Notes: generated by a model not told the origin, from the sequence alone. DNA of 64,000 nt from an uncultured Gammaproteobacteria bacterium (GCA_964414015.1 CAYPUE010000001.1:8893-72892), one strand, 5' to 3'; shown: positions 24,184 to 64,000, numbered from the stretch's first letter. Made by a program: numbers and translations.

Positions 24184-25818
24184 TTATTGGTTTTTAACCA
24201 AAAGACTTTTGATTAATAAAAACAAACTTAATAATATAAAAATAAAGGATGAAATTGTACCAATCGTCCTTGGGCTCGTAGCTCCTAACTCTATTTTTAT
24301 ATCATGATTTCCTGCATTAAGATGGAAAGAAAAAAGCCCATTAGGAGTTACATTTATCTTAACTTTTTTGCCATCTACAAATACTGACCATCCTGGAAAA
24401 TATGCTGTATTTACTCCAATTTCCGAATCATCCTTAGCTTCGATCTTAAAATCATAAAAACTGCTAATAATTCTTTTGGGTGTTATAACGCCATCTCCTT
24501 TTAGAAAAAATGCTTTATCTTTTTGTTTCTTTAAATCTCCATTAAAAAATATTGTATTGAATGCATTTCCCGGGCTATTGGTTCCATCTATAAAATTCGA
24601 TCGCGTTATGTAGTAAGAATCTTCTCTATAAAGGTAGTAAGCTGGTTTTGAATATTCAATCCCCAAAAGAAAAGTAAAAGTAATCATAATGATTGCCAAA
24701 ACCCATGACTTCCAATAAAAAATAATACTCCCTGCCAGAAATGAAGTGATTAATATAACAAGACTTAAGAGTCTCCATGGAAACTGAAAATAATTTACAA
24801 GCGGAATATTAACCCAAATCGGATAGGAAATTTTTTGCATTAAAAATAAAAGAATTAGAAGGGATATTATAAAAAAGAAAATTATCCTGCATTCTGTTTT
24901 TTTCTTTATAAAAAATATACAACCTACACAAAAACTTATAAATGTTGCGAAAATATTAGCTATCCCTATTTGGACAGACATCTCCGTAGCTATATTGGTT
25001 CCAAAAAATCCGGATCCCCATGAAGGAATAATTAATTGATATAAATCCGGAAAATTAACATTCAAACTGAAAACTTCCAATCCAACGACATATTGCCTCT
25101 CAAATAGAGCAGGTATCCAAAAAATTGAAGATAATCCAAGACTAATTAGTATTACGTAGAAAGTATTAAGTATTAAGTATCTGCGATTATTGCTTATGCA
25201 TATTAGAAAAATAATGTAAGAAATAGAAAAAGCAAAAAACATTAAAGCTAAGATATTATGAGAAAATATAATTAACGCCAAAAATATACTTGAAATTGCA
25301 ATATATTTACTTTGTCTTTCTTTAAAGAATTTCGTAATCGACCAGAGAAAAGCCGGAAAAAAAGCAAGAGCCCACACCTCTCCCACAGAACCCCTAATGT
25401 ATGCATCCACGAAATGGTAAGGCGAAAATGAATAAAATACTGAAGATACTATGCCTCCTAATGTACCCCAAAATTCTTTGCTCCAAAGATAAAAAAATAC
25501 TCCGCCGATTATGAAGGCTAAGAACATCTCAAGCTTAAAAGAGTCTATGAAGCTTATACCAAAAATGTGAAAAAAGGAAGCGATGTAGTTTGGTAAGGGA
25601 TAAACGTAGTTAAAAAGCGGCACCCCATATCCATTATTTAAGTCCGGAGCCCAACGGGGATACCAATTGCCATCTCTTAGAACCTTATCGAATTCATAAA
25701 ATCTTACAATATGGTATTCTCCATCATGCGTAGGAGATAATCCCTTATGGATAAGTGAAAAACCAGCAATAATGGAAAATATAATAACTAAAAGTATTGG
25801 AAGAAATTTTTTCGCCAT
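24184..25818 (-). CDS. Polytopic membrane protein of the HDG-PRW-GYGYP family (YfhO-related GT-C-like) with C-terminal YFPGW beta-domain plus TM anchor
   Basis: 544 aa. N-terminal loop SPTHDGEYHIVRF...NWYPRWAPDLNNGYGVPLFNYVYPLPNY. More than 10 TM. C-terminus NTAYFPGWSVFVDGKKV...AGNHDIKIE then a terminal TM helix. Paralogs at 29242, 55651, 57144, 62826. Confidence 0.55.
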   Translation of the reverse strand: MAKKFLPILLVIIFSIIAGFSLIHKGLSPTHDGEYHIVRFYEFDKVLRDGNWYPRWAPDLNNGYGVPLFNYVYPLPNYIASFFHIFGISFIDSFKLEMFLAFIIGGVFFYLWSKEFWGTLGGIVSSVFYSFSPYHFVDAYIRGSVGEVWALAFFPAFLWSITKFFKERQSKYIAISSIFLALIIFSHNILALMFFAFSISYIIFLICISNNRRYLILNTFYVILISLGLSSIFWIPALFERQYVVGLEVFSLNVNFPDLYQLIIPSWGSGFFGTNIATEMSVQIGIANIFATFISFCVGCIFFIKKKTECRIIFFFIISLLILLFLMQKISYPIWVNIPLVNYFQFPWRLLSLVILITSFLAGSIIFYWKSWVLAIIMITFTFLLGIEYSKPAYYLYREDSYYITRSNFIDGTNSPGNAFNTIFFNGDLKKQKDKAFFLKGDGVITPKRIISSFYDFKIEAKDDSEIGVNTAYFPGWSVFVDGKKVKINVTPNGLFSFHLNAGNHDIKIELGATSPRTIGTISSFIFILLSLFLLIKSLLVKNQ

Positions 25819-26930
25819 AATTTTTCTTTTATGGATAAGTACAAAAGAGCCGCAATGGATGGAATAAAGGTTACCAAAGCTTTAATCAAAGGCGTAGGTC
25901 CGAAATAAGTACCAAGAAGCATGAATGGAATATAACGTAATAATAAACCAAAAGAGCAGGAGATGGAAAGATATAATAAAATTTTATTTTTTGGAACAAG
26001 AAATGAAAATGGAAGAAACCATATGGCATACCATGGGTAAATTTCTTCCCTAATTGGCGACAGTAAAAACGCCATTATCATTAATATTGCCGAATAAGAA
26101 AATACATTGTCCCAATTAATCTCCATTTTCCTTACTCTCCTTATGACAACATATATAAAAATAGGAAGTAAAAATAAAGTTGCATATTTTATAAGCATAG
26201 ATAATATTATAAAAATAATTGCCCAAAATATTCTCTTTTTCATTAATAAATAAAAAGCCAAGAGCGCAAAAAACATCATAACTATATCATTATGTCCGCT
26301 AATTAAAGTTTCTATAATTACTAAAGGATTTAGAACGAATAGCAGAAGAGTAGCAAAATTTTTTGATATTTTCCAAATGATAGATATTGTACCTAGATAA
26401 AAAAGGAGTATAAAAAGTTTAAAATTTAAAAGCGTTAGCAGAAAATTCCCAAAACCCAATACATAAGGTATTCCTGTTAATAATATCCAAACCGGACCGT
26501 ATAAAGCGGTTTTATTAGCAGCGTGCATAAAGAAAAGTAATGGATCTTTTGTAAACTCAATAGGCATAATTATATAAGGGTTTTCGTGGTAAAAAAATAA
26601 AACCTTTGAAGTTGCAACATAGTTAAAAATATCATAGGAAAGCATTGCTGGATAAGACAGAAGTAATAATGCAATTGTAAGAATTAAGTATAATTTAAGA
26701 TCTTTAAAACCAAATAATCCCATTTTGCTTAATCTAACTATCAAAAAATAAAATATAAAAAATATTAAAATGAGCAATATATATAAAACGGTTGTTAATT
26801 GGCGGTTACTAAAAGCAAAACCAGAATAAAGCCTATGAAGATATAAAAAATTTGGGTCTATAAATAAATATGAGAAAATTAAAAAACAAAATAAAAAAAA
26901 CGCATAAAGAAAGATAAAAACGGATTTCAT
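25788..26930 (-). CDS. Integral membrane protein (about 11 TM), putative GT-C-like glycosyltransferase
   Basis: 380 aa, highly hydrophobic throughout. Sits in a glycosylation context. No specific family assigned. Confidence 0.35.
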   Translation of the reverse strand: MKSVFIFLYAFFLFCFLIFSYLFIDPNFLYLHRLYSGFAFSNRQLTTVLYILLILIFFIFYFLIVRLSKMGLFGFKDLKLYLILTIALLLLSYPAMLSYDIFNYVATSKVLFFYHENPYIIMPIEFTKDPLLFFMHAANKTALYGPVWILLTGIPYVLGFGNFLLTLLNFKLFILLFYLGTISIIWKISKNFATLLLFVLNPLVIIETLISGHNDIVMMFFALLAFYLLMKKRIFWAIIFIILSMLIKYATLFLLPIFIYVVIRRVRKMEINWDNVFSYSAILMIMAFLLSPIREEIYPWYAIWFLPFSFLVPKNKILLYLSISCSFGLLLRYIPFMLLGTYFGPTPLIKALVTFIPSIAALLYLSIKEKLWRKNFFQYF

Positions 26931-27460
26931 AAATTGTTTTTCCTAATCTCAATCGATTTTAAAATTGCTTCTTTTAAATTTAATATTGTCGGAGGAGATT
27001 TTTCAGGCTTCCATTCAAACTTTTCCGGAACTTCACTTTTTAAAAGTTCGAGAACTTCTATGTGTTTTAATGCTGCATTTTGAAGAATATTCTTTTTATT
27101 CGCAATATTTTTATCTTCTCTCTCTGCTAACTTCAGATATAAAGGGGCTTGTGAAAAGTAGCTATCTGATTTAATTAATGCCTTATAACCCAACAAAAAC
27201 TGCTTGTATTCAAAGAGGGTTTTTGCTTCTACCAGATATTTATTTGATTGTTTTAGGTTATATTCAAACTGTCCGAAACTACCAAAGTGCCAATATCTCA
27301 TCATTTTCTCCCATACAAGGTGAAGTTTATACGAAGCACTTCCGGGCATTGAGGATGGATAAGGCAAAACGTAATTAGACTGCGCAAAAATAGCTGGAGG
27401 AAAAACTACGATCAACAAATAAATAATTATTGCGAATGCAAAAAGCTTTCCATTCGTCAT
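26927..27460 (-). CDS. Secreted hypothetical protein (signal peptide), paralog of 8990..9526
   Basis: The ORF track extends to 27502. The likely start is the ATG at 27460 (MTNGKLFAFAIIIYLLIVVFPPAIFA signal peptide), which overlaps the galE TGA stop as ATGA. Shared motifs LPYP...YKLHLV and LKHIEVLELLKSEVPEK. Confidence 0.5.
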   Translation of the reverse strand: MTNGKLFAFAIIIYLLIVVFPPAIFAQSNYVLPYPSSMPGSASYKLHLVWEKMMRYWHFGSFGQFEYNLKQSNKYLVEAKTLFEYKQFLLGYKALIKSDSYFSQAPLYLKLAEREDKNIANKKNILQNAALKHIEVLELLKSEVPEKFEWKPEKSPPTILNLKEAILKSIEIRKNNL

Positions 27461-28455
27461 TTTGAGTTTTGAGTTTTGAGATTTGAGATTTGTTTGTGCC
27501 ATTTAAAGGCTGTCTTAACAATTGTTTCAATATCTGAATATTGAGGCTTAAATCCTAATTCCGTATTAATTGCCGTAGGGTCAGCTACTAATCTTTCTGC
27601 ATCTCCGGGTCTTCTTGGTGCAATTTTCATTTTAAAATCAATGCCGCTTACTTTTTTTACCATATCTATAACCTCTTTATTAGAATATCCTTTTCCCGTA
27701 CCTGCATTATAGAAAAATCCTCCTTTATTTTTTTGTAATTTCTCAAGAGCCAACACGTGTGCTTCTGCTAAATCCAACACGTGAATATAATCCCTAATGC
27801 AGGTACCATCCTTAGTTTTGTAATCATCCCCATATAATATAAATTCTGATTTATCTATTGCAGATATTATTGCATTTGGAATTATATGAGTCTCGGGATT
27901 ATGATTTTCCCCCATTTTACCGTCCAAAGAGGCACCTGCGGCATTAAAATAGCGAAGACTGACAAAGCTTAATCCATAAATTTCTCTATACCAAGAAAGG
28001 GTTTTTTCAACCATTAGCTTACTTTCTCCGTATGGATTTGTAGGATTTTTTGGATGAATTTCCGGAATTGGAACCTGTATTGGGTTTCCGTATACTCCGG
28101 CTGTTGATGAAAAAATGATTGGAATGGGATTCTTGCTTTTTGACGCCTCATCTATCATGTTTAATGCTGCTAATAAATTATTCTGAAAGTAAATGTAAGG
28201 ATTTTCCATGGACTCTGCCATTGAGATATAACCTGCAAAATGAATAATTCCCTCAAATTCATTTTTCAAAAATAGGCTGGAAACAAAATCTCTTTTATTC
28301 AAATCGCCAATAATAAATTCTGCTCTGCTATCAACTGAATCTTTGCGGCCCCTGGAAAGATTATCAACGACCACGACTTGATAGCCTTTTTCCAAAAGTA
28401 GAGTCGTCATGAAACTGCCAATATAGCCTGCCCCTCCCGTTACTAAAATCTTCAT
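27457..28455 (-). CDS. galE: UDP-glucose 4-epimerase
   Basis: 332 aa. MKILVTGGAGYIGSFMTTLLLEKGYQVVVVDNLSRG. YGESKLMVE (YxxxK). Full-length GalE-like extended SDR. Confidence 0.7.
   Translation of the reverse strand: MKILVTGGAGYIGSFMTTLLLEKGYQVVVVDNLSRGRKDSVDSRAEFIIGDLNKRDFVSSLFLKNEFEGIIHFAGYISMAESMENPYIYFQNNLLAALNMIDEASKSKNPIPIIFSSTAGVYGNPIQVPIPEIHPKNPTNPYGESKLMVEKTLSWYREIYGLSFVSLRYFNAAGASLDGKMGENHNPETHIIPNAIISAIDKSEFILYGDDYKTKDGTCIRDYIHVLDLAEAHVLALEKLQKNKGGFFYNAGTGKGYSNKEVIDMVKKVSGIDFKMKIAPRRPGDAERLVADPTAINTELGFKPQYSDIETIVKTAFKWHKQISNLKTQNSK
27460..27494 (-). repeat. Heptanucleotide tandem repeat (ttttgag x4 plus one degenerate copy) at the galE 3' end and the downstream gene start
   Basis: Direct reading: ttttgag ttttgag ttttgag atttgag atttgtt. 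It encodes the galE C-terminal tail QISNLKTQNSK and precedes the ATGA start/stop overlap. Confidence 0.7.
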
Positions 28456-28464
28456 AGGCTAATT

Positions 28465-29229
28465 TTATTCTTTGATGTATTTTAGATATGAAACCGGAAA
28501 TCTTAAAGCCGAGAAAAAAGCAAATACGAATCCTTGCCAACTGTCCATAAACCCCTTATGCCGTATATATGATGTAAAAAACCACCATGCTGGAAGTATC
28601 AAGATATATTTTAGCATAGTTAAGGAGTCTTTCCCTAGTTTTTTGTCTTCATATTGTTTAGAGATGAAATCCGTATATCTTTTGAATCGCGTTAAATAAC
28701 GAGAGAAAGTTGGGTCAGCCACATGAATAAGCGGATTAGCTAGATACCCTATCTTTCCTTCGACAACCGCTTGTTCATGAACGTCTTTTTGGGGAAGTTT
28801 TCCTTTCCCTCTCTTATATAGCCTTAAAGTGTAATCGGGATACGCCCCTCCTTTCATTAAAAATCTTCCTAAAAACCAATTTTTTCTAGGAATCCAATAG
28901 CCATTCACATCGTCATTTTTGCTATTTGAGATTTGATTTTTGATTTCACTGCGAAGCGATGGCGTAACTCGTTCATCCGCATCAAGCTGCAAAACCCAAT
29001 CTTTAGATGCCATATCTATTGCTTTCTGTTTATTAATATGAAAATTAGGCTTATTAGTAGTTATTTTTACTTTAGCGCCAAATTTTCTGGCAATTTCCAC
29101 AGTTTTATCAGCAGAAGTTCCATCAACTACGATAATTTCATCCGCTATATCTTTTACGCTTTCTAAAGCAGCTCCAAGGTTTTCCTCCTCGTTAAAAGTA
29201 GCCAGAACAACAGAAAGAGTTTTACTCAT
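28465..29229 (-). CDS. GT2 family glycosyltransferase with conserved C-terminal GYWIPRKN domain
   Basis: 254 aa. LSVVLATFNEEENL, IIVVDGTSADKT, QLDADE. Low-complexity linker, then NGYWIPRKNWFLGRF...YPDYTLRLYKRGKG...VHEQ. Paralogs at 50886 and 52576. Confidence 0.7.
   Translation of the reverse strand: MSKTLSVVLATFNEEENLGAALESVKDIADEIIVVDGTSADKTVEIARKFGAKVKITTNKPNFHINKQKAIDMASKDWVLQLDADERVTPSLRSEIKNQISNSKNDDVNGYWIPRKNWFLGRFLMKGGAYPDYTLRLYKRGKGKLPQKDVHEQAVVEGKIGYLANPLIHVADPTFSRYLTRFKRYTDFISKQYEDKKLGKDSLTMLKYILILPAWWFFTSYIRHKGFMDSWQGFVFAFFSALRFPVSYLKYIKE
28917..28944 (-). repeat. Heptanucleotide tandem repeat (ttttgct atttgag atttgat ttttgat) inside the GT2 linker
   Basis: Read directly from the sequence. 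Encodes SEIKNQISNSKNDD on the minus strand. Same 7-mer family as 27460..27494 and 51356..51383. Confidence 0.6.
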
Positions 29230-29241
29230 AAGATGATAATA

Positions 29242-30894
29242 CTAGGAAAGCTTTGGTTTTACAAACTTAAAAACCAAAAGAGAAACGGTAACAAAAAGCG
29301 CAGCGAAAGAAATAATGTCTGATATCAATCTTAGCTTAGTTTCTTTATATTCTGCTTCAACCAGATAATTTCCTTTAGTTAAGTTAAAAGTCATAATCCC
29401 TCTATACTGCATATTCTGAAATTCTAGATAAAGAGGCTTTCCATTTGCTTTTATTTCCCAGCCTGGAAAATACAGGGTATTTTCTCCAAACAGAGCATTC
29501 TTATTAACTTGTACTTGATATTTATGATAAGTTGATTTCCTATCAAGTTCTTTTATTTTTGCGTCTCCGTCAATTACTTCAAGGTATGCTTTTGGCCTTT
29601 TTTCCATAAATCTTACAGACCATATGGGAGCGCTCTCCCCTGTATCCGTAGTGCTATCGTAGATGCCGCTATAAAAACTCTCTTCTTTTTGCAAAAATCC
29701 ATTTGCATGCCAATAATCTTTATTTACAAATAATAGAACTGCAACAAATATTAATAACGCTGCCTTTTTATATTTACTTGAAACTACGGATAATAAAATT
29801 CCTCCCATCAATGCGCTTAAAAAGACTGTAACGGAAAGAAACCTCCAGGGAAACTGAAACTTTTGAAGAGTTGTAATTGTCTGCCAAATTGGATTGGAAG
29901 AAGAGGTCATTAGGAATAGTGTTGCCCAAAAAATAATAAAGCTTCCCAAACATATAATCCATAGCTTATTTCTTTTTTTATATAAATAATACGCTGCAAT
30001 AATACTACCAACTACACCTATCCAGTGAATAATTCCTATTTGCTTGCTAAGAGCTATTGTCCCTCCATAACTCCATGGTGAAAGGAAAAAATCCTTCCAC
30101 GCTACAAAACTCCTTGTGTATTCCCCTCCTCCCGTAACAATGTCCCTAAGGGTATACTTTCCTTCTATCAATGCTGGTATCCAGAAGAAAGCGGATAACC
30201 CAAACCCAAGAAGTATTAAGTAAAAAGAGTTAAGTATAAAGTATTTTTTATTGGAGTACTGAAAAATTAGATAAAAAATGTATATCAGTATCAAGGGCAG
30301 AAACATAAGTGTTATTGCATTATGAGACAGGATAAGACCGGCCAATGAAAGCGATCCTCCCAATATCTGCCAATAGGAAAAATTTTTCGCAAGTTTAGTC
30401 AGGAAATAAAAGATAAGGGGCGGGAAAATAAATGCAACATGCTCACCAATAGCCCCACGGACATATAAATCAACAAATCTATAGGGAGCAATTATATAAA
30501 GCGCGCTTGCAAAAAATGCTGCTTTATCATCATTTAGTAATTCTTTAATAAAAAGGTACATTACTAGACCGCTTAGAACAAATGATGTACCAAAAACCAA
30601 CTTTACACTATCAACTAATGTAAATCCAAAAAAATGAAATAATGAAGCTAAATATGAGGGTAAAGGATAAAGAAATTCCAATATGGGGTGCCCGTATCCC
30701 CAGTTAAGATTACCCGCCCACCTTGGAATAATATTTCCTTCTTTTAGATTTTGATAAAAATTGGCAATTCTTGCAACATGATCTTGTCCATCATGAGTAA
30801 TCGGCAATCCCGAATAGAAAAAATCCAAAAGAGGAATAACTGATAATATGGTGAGTAAAAATAAAATTACTAATTTAGATTTAAAAATTTTCAC
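29242..30894 (-). CDS. HDG-PRW-GYGYP family polytopic membrane protein (YfhO-related GT-C-like) with C-terminal YFPGW domain
   Basis: 550 aa. PITHDGQDHVARI...NIIPRWAGNLNWGYGHPILEFLYPLPSY. C-terminus NTLYFPGWEIKANGKPL...KGNYLVEAEY plus a terminal TM. Confidence 0.55.
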   Translation of the reverse strand: MKIFKSKLVILFLLTILSVIPLLDFFYSGLPITHDGQDHVARIANFYQNLKEGNIIPRWAGNLNWGYGHPILEFLYPLPSYLASLFHFFGFTLVDSVKLVFGTSFVLSGLVMYLFIKELLNDDKAAFFASALYIIAPYRFVDLYVRGAIGEHVAFIFPPLIFYFLTKLAKNFSYWQILGGSLSLAGLILSHNAITLMFLPLILIYIFYLIFQYSNKKYFILNSFYLILLGFGLSAFFWIPALIEGKYTLRDIVTGGGEYTRSFVAWKDFFLSPWSYGGTIALSKQIGIIHWIGVVGSIIAAYYLYKKRNKLWIICLGSFIIFWATLFLMTSSSNPIWQTITTLQKFQFPWRFLSVTVFLSALMGGILLSVVSSKYKKAALLIFVAVLLFVNKDYWHANGFLQKEESFYSGIYDSTTDTGESAPIWSVRFMEKRPKAYLEVIDGDAKIKELDRKSTYHKYQVQVNKNALFGENTLYFPGWEIKANGKPLYLEFQNMQYRGIMTFNLTKGNYLVEAEYKETKLRLISDIISFAALFVTVSLLVFKFVKPKLS

Positions 30895-30902: not shown

Positions 30903-32567
30903 TTATAGTCCATTAACAACTCTTATTCCTGTTTCATTATTTAAATATCTGCCGATAAAAAGAGTTTTTATATTCCGTGGAAAATCATCGGGATTACCAA
31001 CATAAAGCGTTGTTTTGTTCTTCTGTTCTTTGCTCCAATTTATCGGCCTAAACTCAAATTTGGAAAATGCGTGCTCTTCTGCAAATCCTCCTGATTTTGT
31101 CCCGCCCTGCATCTGATAAACAGACGAGTCATACTTAGAATAGAAAAGGAAAAACATATACGACTGGTATAAATTATCTTTGTTGGAAAAAATAATTTTA
31201 TCGTAGGCATTTTGATTCTTTACGACGAAAGGGATAGTTTTGGATAAAGCATATTGAAAAGACTGCGATTGATTTTTGGAAAAAACAAAAAAATATTGCT
31301 GATAAAAATATCGTAATGATAAAATACCAACAATAAACAGTAAAAGGTAAAAAATAGATAAAATGTAAGCTTTAAATCTCACCTTTGCGATAAATTGGAC
31401 AGTAGCAAAAATTCCTAAAGAGGAAAGTATCTGCGGAACAGGCAATGTGTTGTATGCACGCATAGCATGTGGGGCCCCTGTAGTTAAAGAAGGAGCAACG
31501 AAAGAAGCAGTAAGCCATAGTATAATAATAGTCTTAATCTTTTTATCAAACTTCCCCAAAAGCAAAAAAATTACTCCTAAGAGCATAAAAGGGAACTCCC
31601 ACCAGTATAAAAGTCCTATTCCCGGAGCCTTAAAGCTTTCATTGCCGCTATTGCCAAAAATAAACTGTGGGTTTAGATGAGAGAAATAATTCCCAAGAAA
31701 TATTCTAATTGGAACTAAACGTCTGTTGTAAAAAATCTCTCCAACGATATTGCCTTCTTTTTTATATTGCAATACTTTATCAGCACTAATCCCATATGCC
31801 TTACTATTGTTAAATGCTGATGTGCCCTTAAAACGTAAAAGCCCTTGAGGAGTTAAAGTAACTAAAAATATTGGCAAAATAAATAAAATCCCTAAAATTA
31901 ATGATGTAAATACTTTTTGTTTCATTTTTAAAAAATGTTTTCTGAAGATATATAAAAAAACAAGTAAAATTAACGGGGCAAATATTTTTTCACTTTGATA
32001 AGTATAAAAAGATAATCCGAAAAATAAAGTTGAGATTAATAAGAAAAATTTATTTGGGGGATTATTGATTGCTTTGAGCAGGAATAAAACGGCAAGGACA
32101 ACAGAGGTCAAACCTGCATTTACCTCATGTCCAAGCCGTGAAATATAAATGTGCCACGGGGAAATTGCCAGAAGAAACGAAGAAAGCATAGCGATTGTTT
32201 CATTGCTAAATTGTTTAATTGTTGAATTCTTGAATAGCTCTTTTACCAAAAAATATGTAGATACAACTGTTAAAACTGACAGTATAACCGAAGGCAAACG
32301 AACTGCCAGCACATTAAGGCCAAATAGCTTTATAAATGGAATTACCAAATACACATATAAAGCAGGTCGCCAATCATCGTATGCACGAAGAAGTATTGGA
32401 AATTTCGTCCCATATTCATCAGCGCCCGTCTTTAAAATAGAATAAGCATTATAGCCAATCGATGCTTCATCAAGTGAAGCGGTGGGCGGAACATTGGTTA
32501 ATTGATAAAACCGTAAAAAAATCGCTAATAAAATAATTCCTAAAAAAATAATTTTCTTGCTATTCAT
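30903..32567 (-). CDS. PMT_2/ArnT-like GT-C glycosyltransferase (paralog 1 of 5)
   Basis: 554 aa. First loop LDEASIGYNAYSILKTGADEYG (GT-C DE motif). SPWHIYISR motif. More than 11 TM. About 55% identical N-terminal region to 32568..34196. Confidence 0.65.
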   Translation of the reverse strand: MNSKKIIFLGIILLAIFLRFYQLTNVPPTASLDEASIGYNAYSILKTGADEYGTKFPILLRAYDDWRPALYVYLVIPFIKLFGLNVLAVRLPSVILSVLTVVSTYFLVKELFKNSTIKQFSNETIAMLSSFLLAISPWHIYISRLGHEVNAGLTSVVLAVLFLLKAINNPPNKFFLLISTLFFGLSFYTYQSEKIFAPLILLVFLYIFRKHFLKMKQKVFTSLILGILFILPIFLVTLTPQGLLRFKGTSAFNNSKAYGISADKVLQYKKEGNIVGEIFYNRRLVPIRIFLGNYFSHLNPQFIFGNSGNESFKAPGIGLLYWWEFPFMLLGVIFLLLGKFDKKIKTIIILWLTASFVAPSLTTGAPHAMRAYNTLPVPQILSSLGIFATVQFIAKVRFKAYILSIFYLLLFIVGILSLRYFYQQYFFVFSKNQSQSFQYALSKTIPFVVKNQNAYDKIIFSNKDNLYQSYMFFLFYSKYDSSVYQMQGGTKSGGFAEEHAFSKFEFRPINWSKEQKNKTTLYVGNPDDFPRNIKTLFIGRYLNNETGIRVVNGL

Positions 32568-48298: not shown

Positions 48299-48559
48299 TT
48301 GCTATGTTATTATCATTTTATGGATTATTTAACAAATTTTCCGGCCGTTCCTCCCATAGCATCTTTTATCCTCGTTTTATGGGGTATCGCATGGAAAGGA
48401 CTAGCCTTGTGGAAAGCAGCAAAACAAGATCAAAGAAATTGGTTTATAGCGATTCTTGTTCTTAATACTCTTGGGATTTTGGAAATTGTATACCTATTCA
48501 AATTCGCAAAAAAGAAAATGGAGCTTCAAGAGCTTAAATTTTGGCAACCAAAATCTTAA
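48299..48559 (+). CDS. Small two-TM membrane protein (hypothetical)
   Basis: 86 aa ORF. The probable start is the internal ATG at 48320 (MDYLTNF...). Two hydrophobic helices flank WKGLALWKAAKQDQRNWF. It is the only + strand ORF in this block and fills a 300-bp gap between minus-strand genes. Codon-like composition, Trp-rich. Confidence 0.4.
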   Translation: MLCYYHFMDYLTNFPAVPPIASFILVLWGIAWKGLALWKAAKQDQRNWFIAILVLNTLGILEIVYLFKFAKKKMELQELKFWQPKS

Positions 48560-52573: not shown

Positions 52574-52575
52574 CT

Positions 52576-57147: not shown

Positions 57148-58664
57148 ATCTTTTTTTTAATTACCGCAAACAAAAGCGCGCCAAAACTTATTATTGAAAT
57201 TAAATCCGCTGCCAATCTGATCGGTGTTTCCTCAAATGCAACCTTAACGTTATTCTGTCCCTTATCAAGATTTAATCTTATTAATCCCTGCTGATTATTA
57301 TAATCTATATTTGCTCTTTTCCTGTTGACAACCGCCATCCATCCCGGAAAATAAACCGTATTCACCTGAATTGTTCTTGGCGTTGGTAAATAAACATCAA
57401 ATGAGATTTGTTTCGGACTAATAATAGTTGTGTTAATTTTTTCCTGACCGTTTAAATTTTCAACTTTGGCGTTTGGTCTTGCAGATGGAAGAGCTTTAAC
57501 CCATTTTGGCATATATTCATTTTTTATTGTTGTTGTTGCCTCATTGGTTGCGTAAAATGTATCTCTTTTATCGAAAAACAAAGAAGGGCTGATAAATTGT
57601 CTGGCAGAAAAACCCAACAGCAATAATAGAATTACTGCCATAATAATTTTTAAATTTTTTGCCAATAATGAAAGCGACACTGCTGCCAAAAATGCCCCAC
57701 ATGAAATTGTCAAAGATAAAAAACGGAAAGGAAATTGAATAAAAGAAACCGGCAGAAAATTCCATAAAGGTTTACTTAATTCTACGGAAAAAAATAAAGA
57801 CAAAATACCGATAATAAAAAATAGAACTGTTAATCTGTGTTTGGCAAGCGCAATTTTATTAGTAAGAAAAAGAATTATTGTTAAAAAGAAAACAAAAATG
57901 ATCGGTATGCCAATTAAACTGCTATTTACGAAGTAATTGCTCCATTCTGAAACAGCAGTTTGGGAAAAAACCGTATATTGCAAATCCGCTATGGCCGGAA
58001 GCCAGAAAAAGGAGGAAACGCCTAAACCCAAAGTCACAGTAAATAGTAAATAGTAGATAGTAGATAGTTTTCTGAAAATAAAGTAAACAATAATAACAGG
58101 CAAAAACAAAACTGCCAGAGTATTGTGGGAAAGAATTAAAAGAGCAATGCCTATACTTGTCCAAAAAAGACTTTTACGCTCAATTTGCCAAAAGATAAAT
58201 GGGACGATTGCCAAAGCCAAGACTTCCCCGACAGATCCTCGTTTGTAAATATCATATAAGTGATATGGGACATAAAGATAAAAAAGTGCGCCGACAAATG
58301 ATTCAAGTTTTCCGAAAAACTTTCTTAGCCAAAGATATGCGAAAACCAAAGAGCCGGCCATGGACAAACCGAAAATTATTTTGATTGAATTGACAAAACC
58401 GAAACCCAAAAGTTTCGGTACCTCTGCCAAATACATGAAACCGGGATATAAAAAATTTGCCACCGGATAACCGTACTCGTAATTAAGTCTGGATAAAAAG
58501 CGCACTGGAAATTCTCCGGCTCTTAAAGCCTGATGAAAAGCAGAAAATCTGATAATCATCCATTCTCCGTCATCGCTTTGAAAAAATCCAGGATGAAAAA
58601 GAGAAGCAATAGATGGAATTGCAAAAATAATTAAGATAAAAATTAAAAATAAATTCTTCTTCAT
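57144..58664 (-). CDS. HDG-PRW-GYGYP family polytopic membrane protein (YfhO-related GT-C-like) with C-terminal YFPGW domain
   Basis: 506 aa. GFFQSDDGEWMIIRF...GEFPVRFLSRLNYEYGYPVANFLYPGFMY. C-terminus NTVYFPGWMAVVNRKRA...KGQNNVKVAF plus a TM. Confidence 0.55.
   Translation of the reverse strand: MKKNLFLIFILIIFAIPSIASLFHPGFFQSDDGEWMIIRFSAFHQALRAGEFPVRFLSRLNYEYGYPVANFLYPGFMYLAEVPKLLGFGFVNSIKIIFGLSMAGSLVFAYLWLRKFFGKLESFVGALFYLYVPYHLYDIYKRGSVGEVLALAIVPFIFWQIERKSLFWTSIGIALLILSHNTLAVLFLPVIIVYFIFRKLSTIYYLLFTVTLGLGVSSFFWLPAIADLQYTVFSQTAVSEWSNYFVNSSLIGIPIIFVFFLTIILFLTNKIALAKHRLTVLFFIIGILSLFFSVELSKPLWNFLPVSFIQFPFRFLSLTISCGAFLAAVSLSLLAKNLKIIMAVILLLLLGFSARQFISPSLFFDKRDTFYATNEATTTIKNEYMPKWVKALPSARPNAKVENLNGQEKINTTIISPKQISFDVYLPTPRTIQVNTVYFPGWMAVVNRKRANIDYNNQQGLIRLNLDKGQNNVKVAFEETPIRLAADLISIISFGALLFAVIKKKI
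58038..58069 (-). repeat. Heptanucleotide tandem repeat (agtaaat agtaaat agtagat agtagat) inside the membrane-protein CDS
   Basis: Read directly. Two perfect copies of each of two units. Encodes STIYYLLFT, which is TM-helix residues. Confidence 0.7.
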
Positions 58665-58671: not shown

Positions 58672-60309
58672 TTATTTGGTCTCTAAAATCGTAAACATGA
58701 ACTGATTGTTTGGCAAAATTACATCGTATCTTGGGTTATAATTCGACCGCAAAGACATCGGGACATCTGAAGACCAATCGATAAGCAATGTATTTTTTAA
58801 ATTTATATCTTTCTTCCAGTCAATCGGCCTAAATTCATATCTGCCAAAACTTTTGACATACACGAATTCATCTTCTGTCGGCGCATATCTGACAGCTTGT
58901 TTTTGATATAGAAAAGGATCGTATTTGCTGTAAAAAAGAAGATAAATATAAGGCTCGTATTGCGGTCTTGCCATAATTATTTTTTGGGAAGAAAACTGGG
59001 GTTCTGCCAGCAACAAATTTAATTCTTTATAACCCAAACCCCAATTTTGCGCCTCATTTCTTGGGAAATGTACATAATATCTATCCAGATATAAAGAAAA
59101 ATTTATAATAAACAAAAACGCAATTATAGAAACTGCAAATATTCTCCATTTTTTATTGATCAGGCCCGTGAACGACCACAAACCAAAAGCTGTAACCAAA
59201 GGCAGAATTGGAAAAATCGCAAACATTCTGTTGGCATGCGGCGCATCTTTGGTAATACTGGCTGCAATTGGAGAAATAAAAAACCACCACAAAACCAAAT
59301 ACTTTTCTTTGCCCTTTTTAAAAACGACTAAATAAACCAATCCTAAGAAAAGAAACGGCGCTTCAACTAAATACATATTGCCGAAATCAGCAATGTTGTG
59401 CGCTTTATTAGTTCCTCCGCTGACGAATAGAAACTGGCCGGAAAAAGCATTGATGTAATTTTGTCCGAATCTTTCCAAGCCAAAAACAACACGGTTATGC
59501 GTTAATCTAGTGAAAAAAGAATTAAGATTGCCATGTTCCAATCTTGGCAATTCGATTTGCGCGTGTACAACCGACGGATCGCCGAAAATACCAATTCCTG
59601 AAATCTTTGTTTTATCTGCGCCAAAAAGTGTTTGGGAAAAAATAAAACCGGACATTGCTAAAAAAATAACTATCGCAATTATGGTTGTTTTTGTTATTTT
59701 TATCTCTAAGCGATAAATAAGCAATAAACCCAAGACGATAAGGCTAGTAAAAACATGGTTTCCTGCGTAAGTAAAATAAGTCAAAGCGAAGAAAAAAGCT
59801 GCAGGAATTATCAGCCAATGTTTTTTCTTCAGACTGTTGAGAAAACAAATCATCCCCAAGACAACAAAGAGAACTGCGGTATTGGATTCTGACTCAACTC
59901 TGGATAAGTGCAGATGCCACGGTGAAATTCCAATTAAAAACATTGCTAAAAAAGCTAATAAATTATTTTTGAAAAGCAACTTTATCAAGAAAAATGCCAG
60001 ACCAACCGAAGCAATACCAACCAAAGCCGAAGGCAGCCGGACAGCCAATTCCGAAAGCCCCAGAACGCTAACAAACGGCACAACGCTATAAATATAGACC
60101 GGCAGTTTCCAATCGCCAAAAGACTGAAACGATAAAGGCATAAATCGGCCGTACTCATCACGCCCGGTATGTAGAATTGAATAAGCAGTATAGCCGATGG
60201 ATGCCTCGTCTTGATTTACTCCGGGAGGAACAGAGTCTAAATGATAAAGCCTTAGGAGGGCGGCGAGAAAAAGAATGATAAAAAAAACGAGCAGCAATTT
60301 CTTACTCAT
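58672..60309 (-). CDS. PMT_2/ArnT-like GT-C glycosyltransferase (paralog 5 of 5)
   Basis: 545 aa. VNQDEASIGYTAYSILHTGRDEYG. SPWHLHLSR. Confidence 0.65.
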   Translation of the reverse strand: MSKKLLLVFFIILFLAALLRLYHLDSVPPGVNQDEASIGYTAYSILHTGRDEYGRFMPLSFQSFGDWKLPVYIYSVVPFVSVLGLSELAVRLPSALVGIASVGLAFFLIKLLFKNNLLAFLAMFLIGISPWHLHLSRVESESNTAVLFVVLGMICFLNSLKKKHWLIIPAAFFFALTYFTYAGNHVFTSLIVLGLLLIYRLEIKITKTTIIAIVIFLAMSGFIFSQTLFGADKTKISGIGIFGDPSVVHAQIELPRLEHGNLNSFFTRLTHNRVVFGLERFGQNYINAFSGQFLFVSGGTNKAHNIADFGNMYLVEAPFLFLGLVYLVVFKKGKEKYLVLWWFFISPIAASITKDAPHANRMFAIFPILPLVTAFGLWSFTGLINKKWRIFAVSIIAFLFIINFSLYLDRYYVHFPRNEAQNWGLGYKELNLLLAEPQFSSQKIIMARPQYEPYIYLLFYSKYDPFLYQKQAVRYAPTEDEFVYVKSFGRYEFRPIDWKKDINLKNTLLIDWSSDVPMSLRSNYNPRYDVILPNNQFMFTILETK

Positions 60310-60450
60310 TACGTAGCTTTATTATAGTCAATATGAGTATAAAGCGCAAAATTACCTTGAAGCCAAATAAGAAAAGTTACCTTTCGTTATAGGAGATACA
60401 AGTTTAGCGTCACGCAATGTGCGTTGCGGGGAATGGGTATAGTGGGGTTG
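60310..60450 (-). promoter_or_regulatory. 141-bp intergenic region, the largest non-coding gap in the array, with candidate sigma70-like promoter for 58672..60309 and a G-tract island
   Basis: On the minus strand, ttgcgc -17 nt- tataat lies about 11 nt upstream of the ATG at 60309. The + strand carries GGGG/GGG/GGGG/GGGGG tracts and a small acgca-atg-tgcgt hairpin. GC content is clearly above the local background. Confidence 0.3.
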
Positions 60451-62829
60451 TTAGCTTGTTCGTTTGGGGGTGAAAAGAAAAATGACTAGAAGTAAAACGC
60501 TGACAATAGAAGTCCAGAGGCCGAGTTGAAAGGAGAAAGGATTGTAGATAAAATCTATTTTGTGCTCCCCTGCCGGAACGAAAACACTTCGGAAAGCATA
60601 ATCTGCTCTATATATAGTACTCTGCCTCCCATCAATGTAAGCTTTCCAGCCAGGATAATAAGTATCGGAGAGAAAAAGCAAATTGTTGTTAGTTGCATTT
60701 ACCTTAACTACGATTTTATTTGGTTTATATTGCAAGATGCTTACCGATTCGGGATTATTGTTAAATTGTCCGATTGCTAAATTGTTAGGACTTAAACCTT
60801 TAGGATTTTTTTCTAATAAAATTGTTTTGCCCGGATCAAAATCCTTGGCGAAAAATAATTTTTCAAACTCTTCTTTATTATTGAAAGTCTTATAATCCGA
60901 TACTAAAAATGCGCGGGGCAGGACCTTGGTATTCTCAAATATTTTCCAGCCGTTTTGTTCATAAATTAAATTAAATCTATCCGCAGGAAAATCATTTTGC
61001 GTACTGGCATTTTCCGCTCTGTCCAAAACATATTTAACTCCGAGCAAATCCAATATTTTCAACCGGTAAGGATTAGTACTAAGATTGCCTGTTTGATCTA
61101 TATTCGCATCCGACCGGGTTTGGCCGGTAAAATTAGTTTCAATCCTGCCGTTGGCTGCTGCCTGAATAAATTCTCCGTATCTTTTCGGGTACAAAGGATC
61201 ATAACCCTGGGGGGAAAAAAGCTGATATTCTGTGGCAAAATTAGCTTCAATATTACCGGCTTGATATCCCCAAAACCTGTTAATCCCTGCTTTTCCTTGC
61301 AGGAAATTTAAAACTTGGGCATTGGGAAAAACCAATTCTTTGGGAGAAAATGGATTAAATTTTTCAAATGAACGCCACAAGTCAAAAACATTAATCAGCA
61401 ATAAAATCATTAAAATGAAATATCTTAATTTTTTATTCCAAACCGCTATTAACAGTAAAACAGCAGAAATAAGAATAAGAGCCATGGAGTAAGAGAGATT
61501 GCGCAAAGAAATCTGCAGCTGGATGTTTAAACCGTAAGCATTAGTCTTTTGTAAAAATAAGGTAACAGCGTATAACAGTAAAAAGAATAAGATAACCGGC
61601 AGGACCAAGTAAAAATATTTTTTAAGTCTGATATTTTCTTTCTCCAAAAAGTCAATTCCCAGTCCTGCTAAGATACTGGCTGCAAAACAGAATAAAAATA
61701 CTGCGAGTGTAGGCGCGCTTCCTGAAATAAGCGGCAAATTTATTCTATAAAGAAGGGCTGTCAGCGGATTGTTGGTAACCAAAATTAAAACTATTACAGC
61801 TGTCCAAAGAAAAAACTTCTTGAAGGGATTTTTTTGGGAAAAAATGCCGAATAAAATAAAAATAACAGCTGTAATGCCAATGGAAGTAACTTTTCCGACA
61901 TAAGTATCGAAAAGCCAGTAATTTCTGGTTGCGGGATTACCAAAAAAATCAGGAACCAAAAACATTATCAGCTGATAAGGCTGGATCAAAATTTTATTGA
62001 TTAAAAAATCATACTGGTGAGGACTTCTGGCTGCTTCTCTAATTAATTCTATTCCCGGAATAAGCTGAACTGCTCCTAAACCTAAAGACAAAATGCTTAA
62101 AAGACCAAACCACACCGCCGATTTCCTGTTTCGAAAAATAAAATAGATGATTGAAAAACCGAAAAGATAAACAAAAATCTGAATATGTCCTGCCAAAAGC
62201 GAGGACACAAGTGAGAAAACAAAAATTAATATCCATTTCTTTTCTCTTTTTTCCAAAAGCTTTTCAATTGCCAAAAGAAGCAGAGGCAGCCACAGAATCA
62301 CTTGATCAATCGTGTTGTATTCAAACCAGACAGTCATAAATAAGGAAAAAGCAAAGGCACTCGCGGCAAAAATTGCTCCTAATTTTCCTAGGTTTATTTT
62401 TCTGGCATACAGATAGGTAAAAAGCCCTGCCAAAAGCGGCTGAAGCATAACCAGCATAATCCAAGCGCTAAGCTTTGCTGTTAATAAATAGGCAATATTT
62501 AAAGGATAAAAAACAGCCGACTGAAAATTGGCCAGAAGCGGTGCACCGGAAAAATTATAAGGATTCCACAAAGGCAATTGTAAATTTGTAAGCGCATCAA
62601 TCACAAGAGTTTTCCAGGGATATAGCTGGCGAAGAACATCAAAATATTGGGCTTTATTGGGAAATGATCCTGGAACATAACCCAAGTAAGAATAGGTTTT
62701 CCAGGGATTGTACTCTGCGACCAATAAATCTCCGGGAAAAGGAACAAGTCCGAAAAGAACAGTTTTATAAAAAAAGAAAGTCCCAAGCAATAATAACAAC
62801 AGAATAATTAAAAACCATTCTTTTTTCAT
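60451..62829 (-). CDS. YfhO-family membrane protein (GT-C-like glycosyltransferase), paralog 3 of 3
   Basis: 792 aa. LRQLYPWKTLVIDALTNLQLPLWNPYNFSGAPLLANFQSAVFYPLNIAY. C-terminus YYPGWKAYIDGRQSTIYRADYAFRSVFVPAGEHKIDFIY plus a TM. Confidence 0.65.
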   Translation of the reverse strand: MKKEWFLIILLLLLLGTFFFYKTVLFGLVPFPGDLLVAEYNPWKTYSYLGYVPGSFPNKAQYFDVLRQLYPWKTLVIDALTNLQLPLWNPYNFSGAPLLANFQSAVFYPLNIAYLLTAKLSAWIMLVMLQPLLAGLFTYLYARKINLGKLGAIFAASAFAFSLFMTVWFEYNTIDQVILWLPLLLLAIEKLLEKREKKWILIFVFSLVSSLLAGHIQIFVYLFGFSIIYFIFRNRKSAVWFGLLSILSLGLGAVQLIPGIELIREAARSPHQYDFLINKILIQPYQLIMFLVPDFFGNPATRNYWLFDTYVGKVTSIGITAVIFILFGIFSQKNPFKKFFLWTAVIVLILVTNNPLTALLYRINLPLISGSAPTLAVFLFCFAASILAGLGIDFLEKENIRLKKYFYLVLPVILFFLLLYAVTLFLQKTNAYGLNIQLQISLRNLSYSMALILISAVLLLIAVWNKKLRYFILMILLLINVFDLWRSFEKFNPFSPKELVFPNAQVLNFLQGKAGINRFWGYQAGNIEANFATEYQLFSPQGYDPLYPKRYGEFIQAAANGRIETNFTGQTRSDANIDQTGNLSTNPYRLKILDLLGVKYVLDRAENASTQNDFPADRFNLIYEQNGWKIFENTKVLPRAFLVSDYKTFNNKEEFEKLFFAKDFDPGKTILLEKNPKGLSPNNLAIGQFNNNPESVSILQYKPNKIVVKVNATNNNLLFLSDTYYPGWKAYIDGRQSTIYRADYAFRSVFVPAGEHKIDFIYNPFSFQLGLWTSIVSVLLLVIFLFTPKRTS

Positions 62830-64000
62830 AGCAATTTTCGTACAGGCTTAAAAATTCCAAAGACGAGTAAAACCGTAATTGCCAAAACCGTTAATAAATC
62901 CGCTGTCAATCTTAATTTATTTTCGCCGAAAGCAACTGTTATCTGGTGTTCTCCTTGCGGTACGTAAAAAGTAATCTGTCCCCGCCAATTTTGGTCCTGG
63001 AATTGGATAGGAACCGAAACGCCCTCCACAAGCACCCGCCAGCCGGGATAATACTGGGTATGGTTAACCAGCTGAATTTTGGTCTTGGCATTAACAGTAA
63101 AGGTCTGAAGATTTGATTTTTTCTTAAAGTTGGAAATTTCTCCTTGTCCGCCGATTAATTCTATTCTTTGCTTGGGATAACTTACTGCCGGGCCCTTAGA
63201 CCAAATCAGATCGGTTTCTCCGTAATAAGTGGTATTCAGAGGAAAATTCCAATAATAATCTTCATTGATTTTATCAAGGCCAAGCTGGGGCTTCCAATAA
63301 TACACGGTTGAAAAAATAACTAAAAAAAGTAACACAACATAAACTATTTTTTGGGAGAAAAATTTATAGCGGAAGACGAAAACCGATAAAAGCGATAACG
63401 CAAGCCCGCTGACTGATAGGAATCTCCAGGGAAATTGAAACTGCCTAAGCAAAGCTATGTTTGCCCAAATTGGTTTAGATACAGGCTGCATCATCAATAA
63501 TGAAATTGCGAAAATTAAAAGTGCGAAAATAAGTAACTTCTTTAATTTTGATTCCAGTTTTTTAAAATTAAATAGTGCAAAAATAGAAACTAGCAAAACT
63601 ATTGTGTGGAAAGTCCCCAATTGTACAGCTACTCCTCCTGTCTGAAACCCAACAGTATTAAAAAAATTAGGAATAAAGAAATTTTGAATTGGCGGAAAAT
63701 GGGAAAGATAAACATTCTTCATAAATAAATCTCCGTAGGTGTATTTATGTTCCAAAATTGCCGGCAGCCAATAAAAAGCCGAAAGCATTAGTCCTAAAAA
63801 AAGAGACATTAAACCCCAAAAATAATGCTTGCTATTTTTTCCAAAAACAAACACAAAAGCGAAAATCACGCCAAAGAAAACCAGACTAATTGCATTGTGG
63901 GAAAGCACAAGCAAACCTGTTGCCATAGATGTTAAAACCAAGTATTTGTAATTTAATTTGCTAAACAAAAGAGTAAGTCCCCACAAAACCAGAGGTAGAA
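62826..64000 (-). CDS. HDG-family polytopic membrane protein (YfhO-related), 5'-partial; N-terminus lies beyond the window end
   Basis: The ORF is open to the window edge. The visible part aligns with residues after about 170 of paralogs (LSHNAISLVFF...). C-terminus HTQYYPGWRVLVEGVSVPIQF...QGEHQITVAF plus a TM. Confidence 0.5.
   Translation of the reverse strand, partial: LPLVLWGLTLLFSKLNYKYLVLTSMATGLLVLSHNAISLVFFGVIFAFVFVFGKNSKHYFWGLMSLFLGLMLSAFYWLPAILEHKYTYGDLFMKNVYLSHFPPIQNFFIPNFFNTVGFQTGGVAVQLGTFHTIVLLVSIFALFNFKKLESKLKKLLIFALLIFAISLLMMQPVSKPIWANIALLRQFQFPWRFLSVSGLALSLLSVFVFRYKFFSQKIVYVVLLFLVIFSTVYYWKPQLGLDKINEDYYWNFPLNTTYYGETDLIWSKGPAVSYPKQRIELIGGQGEISNFKKKSNLQTFTVNAKTKIQLVNHTQYYPGWRVLVEGVSVPIQFQDQNWRGQITFYVPQGEHQITVAFGENKLRLTADLLTVLAITVLLVFGIFKPVRKLL

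Follow-up and report, generated by a model that had tools for sequence, protein, structure and literature searches.

What kind of enzymes are encoded by a long run of polytopic membrane proteins that fills more than half of one stretch of bacterial DNA, how old is the run, and what might it build? The stretch (hereafter the window) comprises 64,000 nucleotides deposited under the title of an uncultured Gammaproteobacteria bacterium (GCA_964414015.1, CAYPUE010000001.1:8893-72892), and an earlier note, made from the sequence alone, had described between its positions 24184 and 64000 a tandem expansion of membrane glycosyltransferases of the GT-C superfamily. Positions are counted from the first base of the window, and genes are named by their lower coordinate. 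We find 20 GT-C-type polytopic genes (33.9 kb, 53% of the bases of the window), and the assignment of all 20 to the GT-C type is supported by hidden Markov models (HMMs), profile-profile comparison, ortholog annotation or predicted fold. Eighteen of them, accompanied by one Wzx-type flippase, lie between 24184 and 64000, where the 18 alone occupy 74% of the span, and two lie outside it, at 6735-8942 and 13163-15304; the figures given earlier, about 17 large membrane proteins in this region and about 20 in total, are borne out, and the open reading frame (ORF) coordinates match. The 20 comprise five PMT_2/GT39-like, five PTPS_related, three YfhO, two long PMT_2, two divergent PMT_2-like and two GT87/MptA-like proteins and one DUF2079 protein. 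With 20 of the 52 ORFs drawn from one fold superfamily, the accumulation is far beyond chance. A hydropathy scan gave 5-13 transmembrane segments for each of the 20 candidates; members of the GT-C superfamily typically have 8-13.

The closest named relatives of the window's proteins (85-88% identical) are encoded by metagenome-assembled genomes (MAGs) of Candidatus Levybacteria, which, judged by sequence similarity, places the organism as a Levybacteria-like member of Microgenomates (Candidate Phyla Radiation (CPR)/Patescibacteria). The relatives' genomes include one complete 995-kb chromosome and contigs of 0.6-1.2 Mb, so that the source genome would measure about 1 Mb. ORFs cover about 99% of the window by summed length (some overlap), the only gaps between them being 81-299 bp, and GC content is 31-37% throughout. 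Nearly all genes between 24 and 64 kb are on the minus strand, with neighboring stops and starts overlapping or abutting in the ORF map; this one-strand layout, the interspersed glycosyltransferase family 2 (GT2) genes and the two Wzx-like flippases had all been noted earlier and hold in the ORF map and in Pfam and NCBIfam searches. Scans of the window for tRNAs and Rfam families were empty. A promoter/terminator scan did not clearly exceed the shuffled background (75 against 57.5 +/- 7.7, in AT-rich DNA), and operons were not defined from it.

Families and folds of the GT-C-type proteins

All-vs-all BLAST grouped most of the proteins into three paralog families. The five PMT_2, three YfhO and five HDG...PRW...GYGYP proteins named previously are confirmed by BLAST, motifs and Pfam, and the motifs quoted for them (DE and SPWH...SR; PLWNPY; HDG...GYGYP) are all present. 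The count of three families stands for paralog families defined by BLAST and falls short for the superfamily, of which at least six Pfam families are present.

Family A (PMT_2; genes 30903, 32568, 34193, 37441 and 58672) has a mutual identity of 31-41%, an invariant D33-E34 pair and the SPWH...SR motif. Its five members match PMT_2 and/or PMT above the Pfam gathering threshold, as do the two long proteins 6735 and 13163 (E-values are given below after the name of the family matched). Three members form a PMT_2/GT39-like triplet on the minus strand (30903-32567, 32568-34196 and 34193-35833; PMT_2 and PMT above threshold; 34-41% mutual identity by BLAST), which is part of a conserved Microgenomates core and keeps its order in other genomes. 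The remaining two, also on the minus strand, are a PMT_2-like paralog at 37441-39108 (PMT_2 8.7e-8) and a PMT_2/PMT-like paralog at 58672-60309 (PMT 4.2e-8), both above threshold and each 31-36% identical to the other members.

Family B (PTPS_related; mutual identity 26-35%) carries the motif HDG...(P)RW...GYG(Y)P, and four of its five members, all on the minus strand, match PF10131 (PTPS_related) above the gathering threshold. These are the protein at 24184-25818 (PF10131 6e-15 and a YfhO C-terminal match; 31-35% identical to the other full-length members), the core member at 29242-30894 (PF10131 3.4e-14) and two adjacent proteins at 55651-57147 and 57144-58664, of which 55651 passes the PMT_2 threshold as well. 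The fifth, at 62826-64000, has its N-terminus beyond the end of the window and no such match; its ORF (62826-63986) aligns from about residue 158 of the paralogs, the frame is open to base 64000, and BLAST places it in the family at 26-32% identity to the other members. Family C (YfhO; mutual identity 33-35%) carries the motif PLWNPYxFSGxPLLANxQS, and its three minus-strand members match YfhO (PF09586) over their full length with 69-102 bits (gathering threshold 28.5): 44907-47186 (2.9e-19), 48556-50883 (4.7e-28; C-terminus also matching PgfM2 and PgfM1) and 60451-62829 (4.8e-29). Profile-profile comparison by hhalign linked families B and C with a probability of 97.6%, and A and B with 84%.

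The other members are more diverged. The protein at 35875-37419 matches PMT_2 below threshold (2e-3) and aligns to the family A profile with an hhalign probability of 97.3% over 392 columns; it carries an IDEAS loop-1 motif and SPW, and its gene is the sole GT-C gene on the plus strand between 24 and 64 kb, an inverted orientation that is kept in relatives. A divergent ArnT/PMT_2-like protein at 40340-41830 (minus strand; PMT_2 7e-3, sub-threshold) has many orthologs that carry PF13231 (PMT_2) and are named GT39. Its AlphaFold2 (AF2) model, built from the ortholog alignment, has a pLDDT of 90.8, and the best Foldseek match of the model is ArnT (5ezm; E 6e-7, TM-score 0.60), followed by AglB, ALG12, Pmt4, STT3 and PglB; the top 43 matches are all GT-C folds (42 glycosyltransferases and two chains of PIG-U, a subunit of the glycosylphosphatidylinositol transamidase). 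The protein at 39108-40334 (minus strand), of GT87/PimE/ALG3-like GT-C_B type, has no Pfam match of its own and is assigned through ortholog Pfam annotation and predicted fold: its orthologs (60-87% identical) often carry PF09594 (GT87) or PF26314 (MptA_B), some being named GT87/DUF2029, and its AF2 model, likewise built from an ortholog alignment and, like that of 40340, a multi-helix bundle, has a PimE/ALG3-like fold. An MptA/GT87-like protein with 11 transmembrane segments at 25788-26930 (minus strand) matches GT87 (2.5e-3; 18.1 bits against a threshold of 25) and the MptA model TIGR03459 (7.7e-10; 38 bits against a cut-off of 439), and its orthologs in two related loci (L001 and L085) carry PF26314 (MptA_B). 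A DUF2079 membrane protein of the GT-C clan is encoded at 42545-43966 (minus strand; PF09852 4.3e-45). When 40340, 39108, 25788 and 42545 were compared with the three family profiles, hhalign gave probabilities below 10%, so these four were assigned by orthologs, structure or Pfam.

The two long proteins lie upstream of the main run. One (735 residues; 6735-8942, plus strand; PMT_2 1.2e-16, PMT 2.3e-12) has a C-terminal extracytoplasmic domain in which residues ~571-651 give a weak, sub-threshold match to the carbohydrate-binding module (CBM) family CBM_4_9 (E 3.4e-3). This domain may be CBM-like and, if real, would by analogy suggest a glycan acceptor; Emb and AftD proteins bear C-terminal carbohydrate-binding modules. 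The other (713 residues; 13163-15304, minus strand) matches PMT_2 (1.6e-8) and PMT (8.8e-7) and passes the gathering threshold of each.

Taken together, about 16 of the 20 proteins pass curated HMM thresholds of the GT-C clan (PMT_2/PMT, PTPS_related, YfhO and DUF2079). The remaining assignments were made by BLAST (62826), by hhalign (35875) and via the Pfam matches of orthologs (25788, 39108 and 40340). PF10131 and PF09852 we take to be members of the Pfam GT-C clan CL0111. In each of the 19 GT-C proteins whose N-terminus is intact, the first loop after transmembrane segment 1 contains an Asp or Glu, and loop-1 acidic residues are invariant within family A (D33/E34), B (D35) and C (D61) and within the orthologs of 40340 (D41/D45) and 39108 (D95/E101). 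Searches of the family A, B and C profiles against Protein Data Bank (PDB) sequences matched no chain, and the fold evidence is accordingly drawn from the AF2 models. The earlier note had named two outcomes that would tell against its assignment, placement of the proteins outside GT-C by HMM or structure and loss of the acidic first-loop residues, and neither was found. These proteins probably use lipid-linked (polyprenyl-phosphate) sugar donors, a view to which the six GtrB/ArnC/DPM1-like GT2 genes of the island lend indirect support.

Conservation of the array across Microgenomates

Species representatives of GTDB were scanned with the family A profile, and the loci studied are the best 80 of at least 596 relatives. 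Named records among these 80 are nearly all Levy-, Gottesman-, Roizman-, Woese- or Curtissbacteria or are labeled Microgenomates/Patescibacteria, the exceptions by title being two short contigs, one of Paceibacterota (L054) and one of Nanoarchaeota (L076). Among loci L004-L080 with CAY/CAZ accessions, many third-party-annotation MAGs titled "uncultured Gammaproteobacteria" carry the same Microgenomates-type cluster and synteny, and these titles look like placeholder or wrong taxonomy.

Across 50 loci of at least 20 kb from other species, all picked for containing a family A gene and thus measuring the density of the cluster and not its frequency among genomes, BLAST to the window's GT-C set counted up to 11 GT-C genes per 21.6 kb, with a median of 8. 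Their density of 0.3-0.5 GT-C genes per kb compares with 0.45 per kb in 24184-64000 (18 in 39.8 kb), and families A, B and C usually occur together. The statement that no locus of such density had been described is upheld in so far as our full-text search of the literature on glycosyltransferases of CPR, Patescibacteria, Microgenomates and Levybacteria found no description of the array, but similar density is found in 50 other GTDB species.

The tested GT-C genes have orthologs that are 60-88% identical within Levybacteria, against 31-41% between family A paralogs, and 42-67% identical in other Microgenomates orders, with the same gene order. For the family B core member 29242, an ortholog is closer than any window paralog in 29 of the 50 loci. 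A survey of gene neighborhoods in related genomes, as proposed earlier, found the core order conserved: GT87-like (39108), PMT_2 (34193), PMT_2 (32568), PMT_2 (30903), PTPS_related (29242), GT2 (28465), GalE (27457), DUF5667, MptA-like (25788), PTPS_related (24184), glycosyltransferase family 4 (GT4; 19022) and Wzx (17209). This order is shared by Levy-, Gottesman-, Woese-, Roizman- and Curtissbacteria. A neighbor-joining tree of family A separates the 30903-, 32568- and 34193-clades, each with members from Levy-, Gottesman-, Woese- and Roizmanbacteria; as these ortholog clades span orders, the GT-C duplications are, on the sequence comparisons, placed before the divergence of the Microgenomates lineages. 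In GCA_030651475.1 the same order extends over about 30 kb without the DUF2079 gene (42545), which is missing at the equivalent position (L083/L085; proteins 85-88% identical) where the flanking GT2 genes abut. The DUF2079 gene is thus an accessory gene, recently gained or lost in an otherwise colinear locus, and the periphery of the array changes while its core is stable.

Candidate donor synthases, flippases and the proposed pathway

Two plus-strand genes encode polyprenyl-phosphate glycosyltransferases of the GtrB/ArnC/PgfS type with full-length NCBIfam matches and two C-terminal transmembrane segments: 23241-24182 (PgfS 4.2e-71, ArnC 2e-45; segments at residues 227 and 265) and 2146-3141 (PgfS 1.8e-31, ArnC 1.8e-25), the latter 26% identical to the former over 308 residues. 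Further candidate polyprenyl-phosphate sugar synthases, on the minus strand, are a DPM1/AglJ/PpgS-like soluble GT2 at 41832-42548 (AglJ 1.3e-33, PpgS 4.2e-21, dolichyl-phosphate hexose transferase 6e-16; matches near full length) and a DPM1/AglJ/ArnC-like GT2 at 54945-55679 (AglJ 1.8e-19, ArnC 3.2e-19, PpgS 8e-13). With an ArnC/PpgS-like GT2 at 16416-17225 (minus strand; ArnC 3.2e-14, PpgS 5.9e-13) and a DPM-like GT2 at 4747, the synthase candidates number six; 41832, 54945, 16416 and 4747 are all below equivalog cut-offs. Two flippases of the multidrug/oligosaccharidyl-lipid/polysaccharide (MOP) superfamily are encoded on the minus strand, a Wzx-like protein at 53504-54958 (Polysacc_synt_3 4.8e-47) and a Wzx/MATE-like protein at 17209-18471 (Polysacc_synt_3 4.3e-9, and MatE), a homolog of which comes after the core in other Microgenomates. 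The usual substrates of Wzx-type MOP flippases are undecaprenyl-diphosphate (Und-PP)-linked oligosaccharides, and these flippases differ from those of the GtrA/ArnEF type. The three-component logic of synthase, flippase and GT-C transferase suggested by the earlier note is consequently retained in part: the synthase candidates are real, 23241 and 2146 being full-length PgfS/ArnC homologs, but the Wzx proteins are not of GtrA/ArnEF type and no GtrA-like gene is present in the window.

We read the window as an island for glycan synthesis of the cell envelope, and from the families and folds, the conservation and the synteny described above, we infer the donors, order of action, acceptor and product as follows. 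Cytoplasmic enzymes (GalE, a PseB/PglF-like dehydratase, a PseC/ArnB-like aminotransferase, an RmlC-like cupin, methyltransferases and a split transketolase) would make and tailor nucleotide sugars, and as many as six GT2 enzymes (GtrB/ArnC/PgfS and DPM1/PpgS/AglJ types) would load single sugars onto polyprenyl phosphate. The lipid-linked sugars would then be moved to the outer face of the membrane by a flippase absent from the window's set, which may be encoded elsewhere in the genome, and the ~20 GT-C transferases of at least six families would each be responsible for one particular residue or linkage as an acceptor outside the cell is extended. In a parallel route, a lipid-linked oligosaccharide could be provided as primer by GT4 and GT2 enzymes together with the two Wzx-like flippases. 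By analogy with known pathways, an assembly line of this kind for a defined, conserved surface glycoconjugate (a lipoglycan, a wall polymer or the glycan of a glycoprotein) is the reading we consider somewhat probable. The presence of MptA-, PimE- and ALG3-like types, which build chains, and the one-to-one conservation of paralogs favor such a product, and class-wide conservation of the array suggests a large cell-surface glycan built outside the membrane.

Several points weigh against this assembly-line proposal. Structure models cover two of the 20 GT-C proteins (39108 and 40340; AF2), the HMM matches of 25788 and 35875 are sub-threshold and are backed by profile comparison or ortholog annotation, and the density loci were selected by their family A gene. 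In other systems, a PMT_2 or YfhO enzyme works alone, its target being a protein, a teichoic acid or lipid A. No small flippase of the GtrA/GtcA or ArnE/F type was matched among window ORFs of at least 150 residues, nor did any window ORF match Bac_transf, Glycos_transf_4, Wzy_C or O-antigen polymerase as an initiating phosphoglycosyltransferase, Wzy or ligase would; gaps of 81-299 bp are too small for the window to hide any of these four components.

Three other explanations were considered. That the polytopic proteins are not glycosyltransferases, being transporters or inactive structural membrane proteins that resemble GT-C families, would fit the lack of an own above-threshold Pfam match in about four of the 20, the misleading name "PTPS related" of PF10131 and the absence of PDB sequence matches for the three family profiles. 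It is extremely unlikely given the roughly 16 proteins above curated GT-C thresholds, the conserved and within families invariant loop-1 acidic residues and the setting of the genes among GT2/GT4 glycosyltransferases and sugar-nucleotide enzymes, and we rejected it because the predicted-fold matches of 40340 and 39108 are GT-C. A recent, lineage-specific tandem amplification that yields a hypervariable, combinatorial surface antigen, for instance for evasion of phages or hosts, was the view implied by the earlier note's "tandem expansion", and many side-by-side paralogs on one strand, the DUF2079 gene (42545-43966) that differs from an 85-88% identical relative and the variable peripheral gene content of the loci speak for it. 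We regard this, too, as very unlikely, and rejected it: the paralogs are only 31-41% identical against 42-67% for orthologs in other orders, the neighbor-joining tree groups proteins by ortholog and not by genome, and the core order is kept from Levy- to Curtissbacteria, so that the expansion is neither local nor recent. Each paralog having its own ortholog in a kept gene order, a defined product is more likely than a hypervariable antigen, and the deep conservation points to such a product instead of the "combinatorially complex" glycan predicted earlier.

The explanation closest to our own is a set of many independent decoration systems of the Gtr/Pgf/Arn kind, in which each GT-C protein or small group adds one sugar to a separate acceptor, such as type IV pilins, sortase-anchored or S-layer proteins, teichoic-acid-like polymers or membrane lipids, and the paralogs would differ in acceptor specificity. 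Characterized YfhO/PgfM and PMT enzymes are indeed single-step modifiers of lipoteichoic or wall teichoic acids or of proteins (PMC5836110, PMC8035078, PMC11092751), 23241 is PgfS-like, the YfhO C-termini match PgfM1 and PgfM2, and several distinct candidates for polyprenyl-phosphate sugar synthases adjoin particular GT-C genes (for example 41832/40340, 54945/55651 and 43963/44907). We nevertheless find independent decoration somewhat unlikely, because MptA-, PimE- and ALG3-like enzymes characteristically belong to pathways that build chains, the tight operon and the order of about 10 GT-C genes kept across orders suggest a common pathway, and the window encodes no acceptor proteins.

Among the core genes that do not encode GT-C proteins, the best conserved are GalE (27457-28455, minus strand; TIGR01179 388.9 bits, cut-off 262.3) and a small GT2 (28465-29229, minus strand; ortholog in 48 of the 50 loci). 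Between GalE and the MptA-like gene, a small signal-anchored DUF5667 protein is encoded at 26927-27502 (minus strand; DUF5667 8.6e-4), a small gene being found at the same position in L001 and L085; a small, signal-anchored paralog lies at 8939-9526 (plus strand; DUF5667 1.3e-8; 29% identical to the 26927 protein). For the DUF5667 protein, a role as accessory factor, chain-length regulator or acceptor is conceivable. Further cytoplasmic or single-span glycosyltransferases, on the minus strand, are a GT2 with one C-terminal transmembrane segment at 43963-44910 (Glycos_transf_2 1.2e-25), paired with the YfhO gene 44907 and adjoining a YfhO ortholog in L024, L035 and L063 as well, a GT4 of GT-B fold at 47183-48256 (Glycos_transf_1 3.3e-14) and three GT2 (50886, 51656 and 52576) in 50886-53514 (Glycos_transf_2 8e-15 to 4.6e-23; 51656 rhamnosyltransferase-like). 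The window contains four GT4 genes, among them one at 15301-16419 (minus strand; Glycos_transf_1 6.2e-37). In the only sizeable intergenic gap, on the strand opposite to its neighbors, an ORF of 86 residues with two transmembrane segments lies at 48299-48559 (plus strand); it has no NCBIfam match, and a 79-residue gene of a relative at this position is annotated DUF5652, not GtrA.

The other sugar-nucleotide enzymes are as follows. A PseC/ArnB-like aminotransferase, a PseB/PglF-like 4,6-dehydratase and a GT4 occupy 9545-13166 (minus strand); the N-terminal CoA_binding_3 region of the dehydratase (10601-12007) matches the central non-catalytic part of WcaJ-type phosphoglycosyltransferases, and the protein has no transmembrane segments and no transferase domain. 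A tailoring block at 18468-23189 encodes an RmlC-like cupin, a GT4, a methyltransferase, a short-chain dehydrogenase/reductase (SDR) dehydratase/epimerase and a split transketolase (21958-23189). The transketolase consists of a 244-residue N-terminal thiamine-pyrophosphate-binding part and a Pyr-binding part of only 166 residues, and lies between the SDR gene and the PgfS-like GT2, an arrangement kept in an 85%-identical relative; it may hint at a chain-extended or branched sugar. The block upstream of 6735 (2-6653) encodes a C-methyltransferase, GT2 enzymes, an SDR, a TIM-barrel epimerase and an FAD oxidoreductase, and from 2146 to 8942 its order is PgfS/ArnC-like GT2 (2146), short SDR (3145), xylose-isomerase-like TIM-barrel epimerase (3909), DPM-like GT2 (4747), FAD-dependent oxidoreductase (5526) and long PMT_2 (6735). 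Speculatively, this mix of redox enzymes and epimerase resembles DprE1/E2-style epimerization of a lipid-linked sugar.

Known systems and the meaning of the array

Of the two nearest working analogies, one is the mycobacterial and corynebacterial machinery for lipomannan (LM), lipoarabinomannan (LAM) and arabinogalactan (PimE, MptA/B/C, EmbA-C, AftA-D, Ppm1 and decaprenyl-phosphate-arabinose donors), in which many GT-C enzymes act in sequence outside the membrane on polyprenyl-phosphate monosaccharide donors made by cytoplasmic GT2 enzymes (PMC3123699, PMC3485146), as is proposed for the window. It is an array of GT-C enzymes that builds LAM (PMC3123699), and these require polyprenyl-phosphate mannose from Ppm1 (PMC3485146). 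The window shares with it MptA-like and PimE/GT87-like members, DPM1/PpgS-like synthases and a Gram-positive-type envelope context (PMC6744442). It differs in its dominant families, which are a PMT_2 subfamily, PTPS_related and YfhO instead of Emb and Aft, and no genes for a phosphatidylinositol anchor (PimA/B) were seen in the window. In mycobacteria the LM/LAM genes are dispersed through a genome several times as large, whereas here 20 GT-C genes are packed into one 64-kb island of a ~1-Mb genome.

Multi-component transmembrane glycosylation systems, including those with YfhO, have been described (PMC5836110, PMC8035078, PMC11127046). As in the three-component systems GtrA/GtrB/GtrC, CsbB/GtcA/YfhO, ArnC/ArnEF/ArnT and PgfS/PgfM1/PgfM2, a GtrB/ArnC/PgfS-type synthase is paired with GT-C proteins in the window, but a GtrA, GtcA or ArnEF-type flippase is not there, the ~20 GT-C proteins and ~6 synthase candidates take the place of one each, and the Wzx-type flippases follow Und-PP-oligosaccharide logic. 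Of the Wzx/Wzy-dependent pathway, the window has Wzx-type flippases and lacks an initiating transferase, Wzy and ligase. Family A and the two long proteins resemble the GT39 Pmt and GT83 ArnT enzymes in passing PMT_2/PMT thresholds and in the loop-1 DE motif, and NCBI names many family A orthologs "glycosyltransferase family 39 protein"; they differ in that the family A profile matches, at the sequence level, no Pmt or ArnT of solved structure, and that five deeply diverged paralogs and four outliers stand where Pmt and ArnT are normally single genes. The second of the two analogies, the lumenal ALG3/9/12/6/8/10 and STT3 pathway of the endoplasmic reticulum (ER), is alike in fold and logic only, the window's system being bacterial, and no STT3/PglB ortholog was identified by sequence in the window.

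The proteins are all from a known superfamily and most are from known families; what appears to be undescribed is the array as such, in which 10-20 genes of several GT-C families are kept in synteny throughout Microgenomates at a genome size of ~1 Mb. A study of CPR protein families reported 35 families enriched in Microgenomates, mostly hypothetical and 14 of them membrane-localized (PMC6744442), and its main text contains no word beginning with "glycosyl". An overlap of these enriched families with the GT-C families described here is plausible. The array is striking in scale and testable, yet it is made of known parts and is common in its lineage. Its deeply diverged GT-C paralogs, PTPS_related members among them, form a compact natural collection that lends itself to study of how acceptor and linkage specificity evolve. 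For metatranscriptomics the array supplies clades of GT-C orthologs and putative donor synthases, and it also supplies targets for cryo-electron tomography and glycan analysis of enrichment cultures and candidates for heterologous reconstitution.

CPR bacteria have a minimal metabolism, and their cell-surface chemistry is scarcely known. For a 1-Mb genome, 10-20 class-wide conserved GT-C proteins are a very large investment, which implies a glycoconjugate central to the envelope or to the presumed contact with a host cell. The broadest form of the argument we hold tentatively, as a possibility somewhat short of even: that ultra-small, probably episymbiotic Microgenomates devote ~3-6% of a ~1-Mb genome to an ancient syntenic line of 10-20 GT-C proteins building a lineage-defining surface heteroglycan or lipoglycan wholly on the outer face of the membrane. 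If true, this line would stand in these bacteria as the equivalent of the ER ALG pathway or of the mycobacterial synthesis of LAM, it could account for part of the "hypothetical" membrane families enriched in Microgenomates (PMC6744442), and its surface glycan could mediate attachment to the host.

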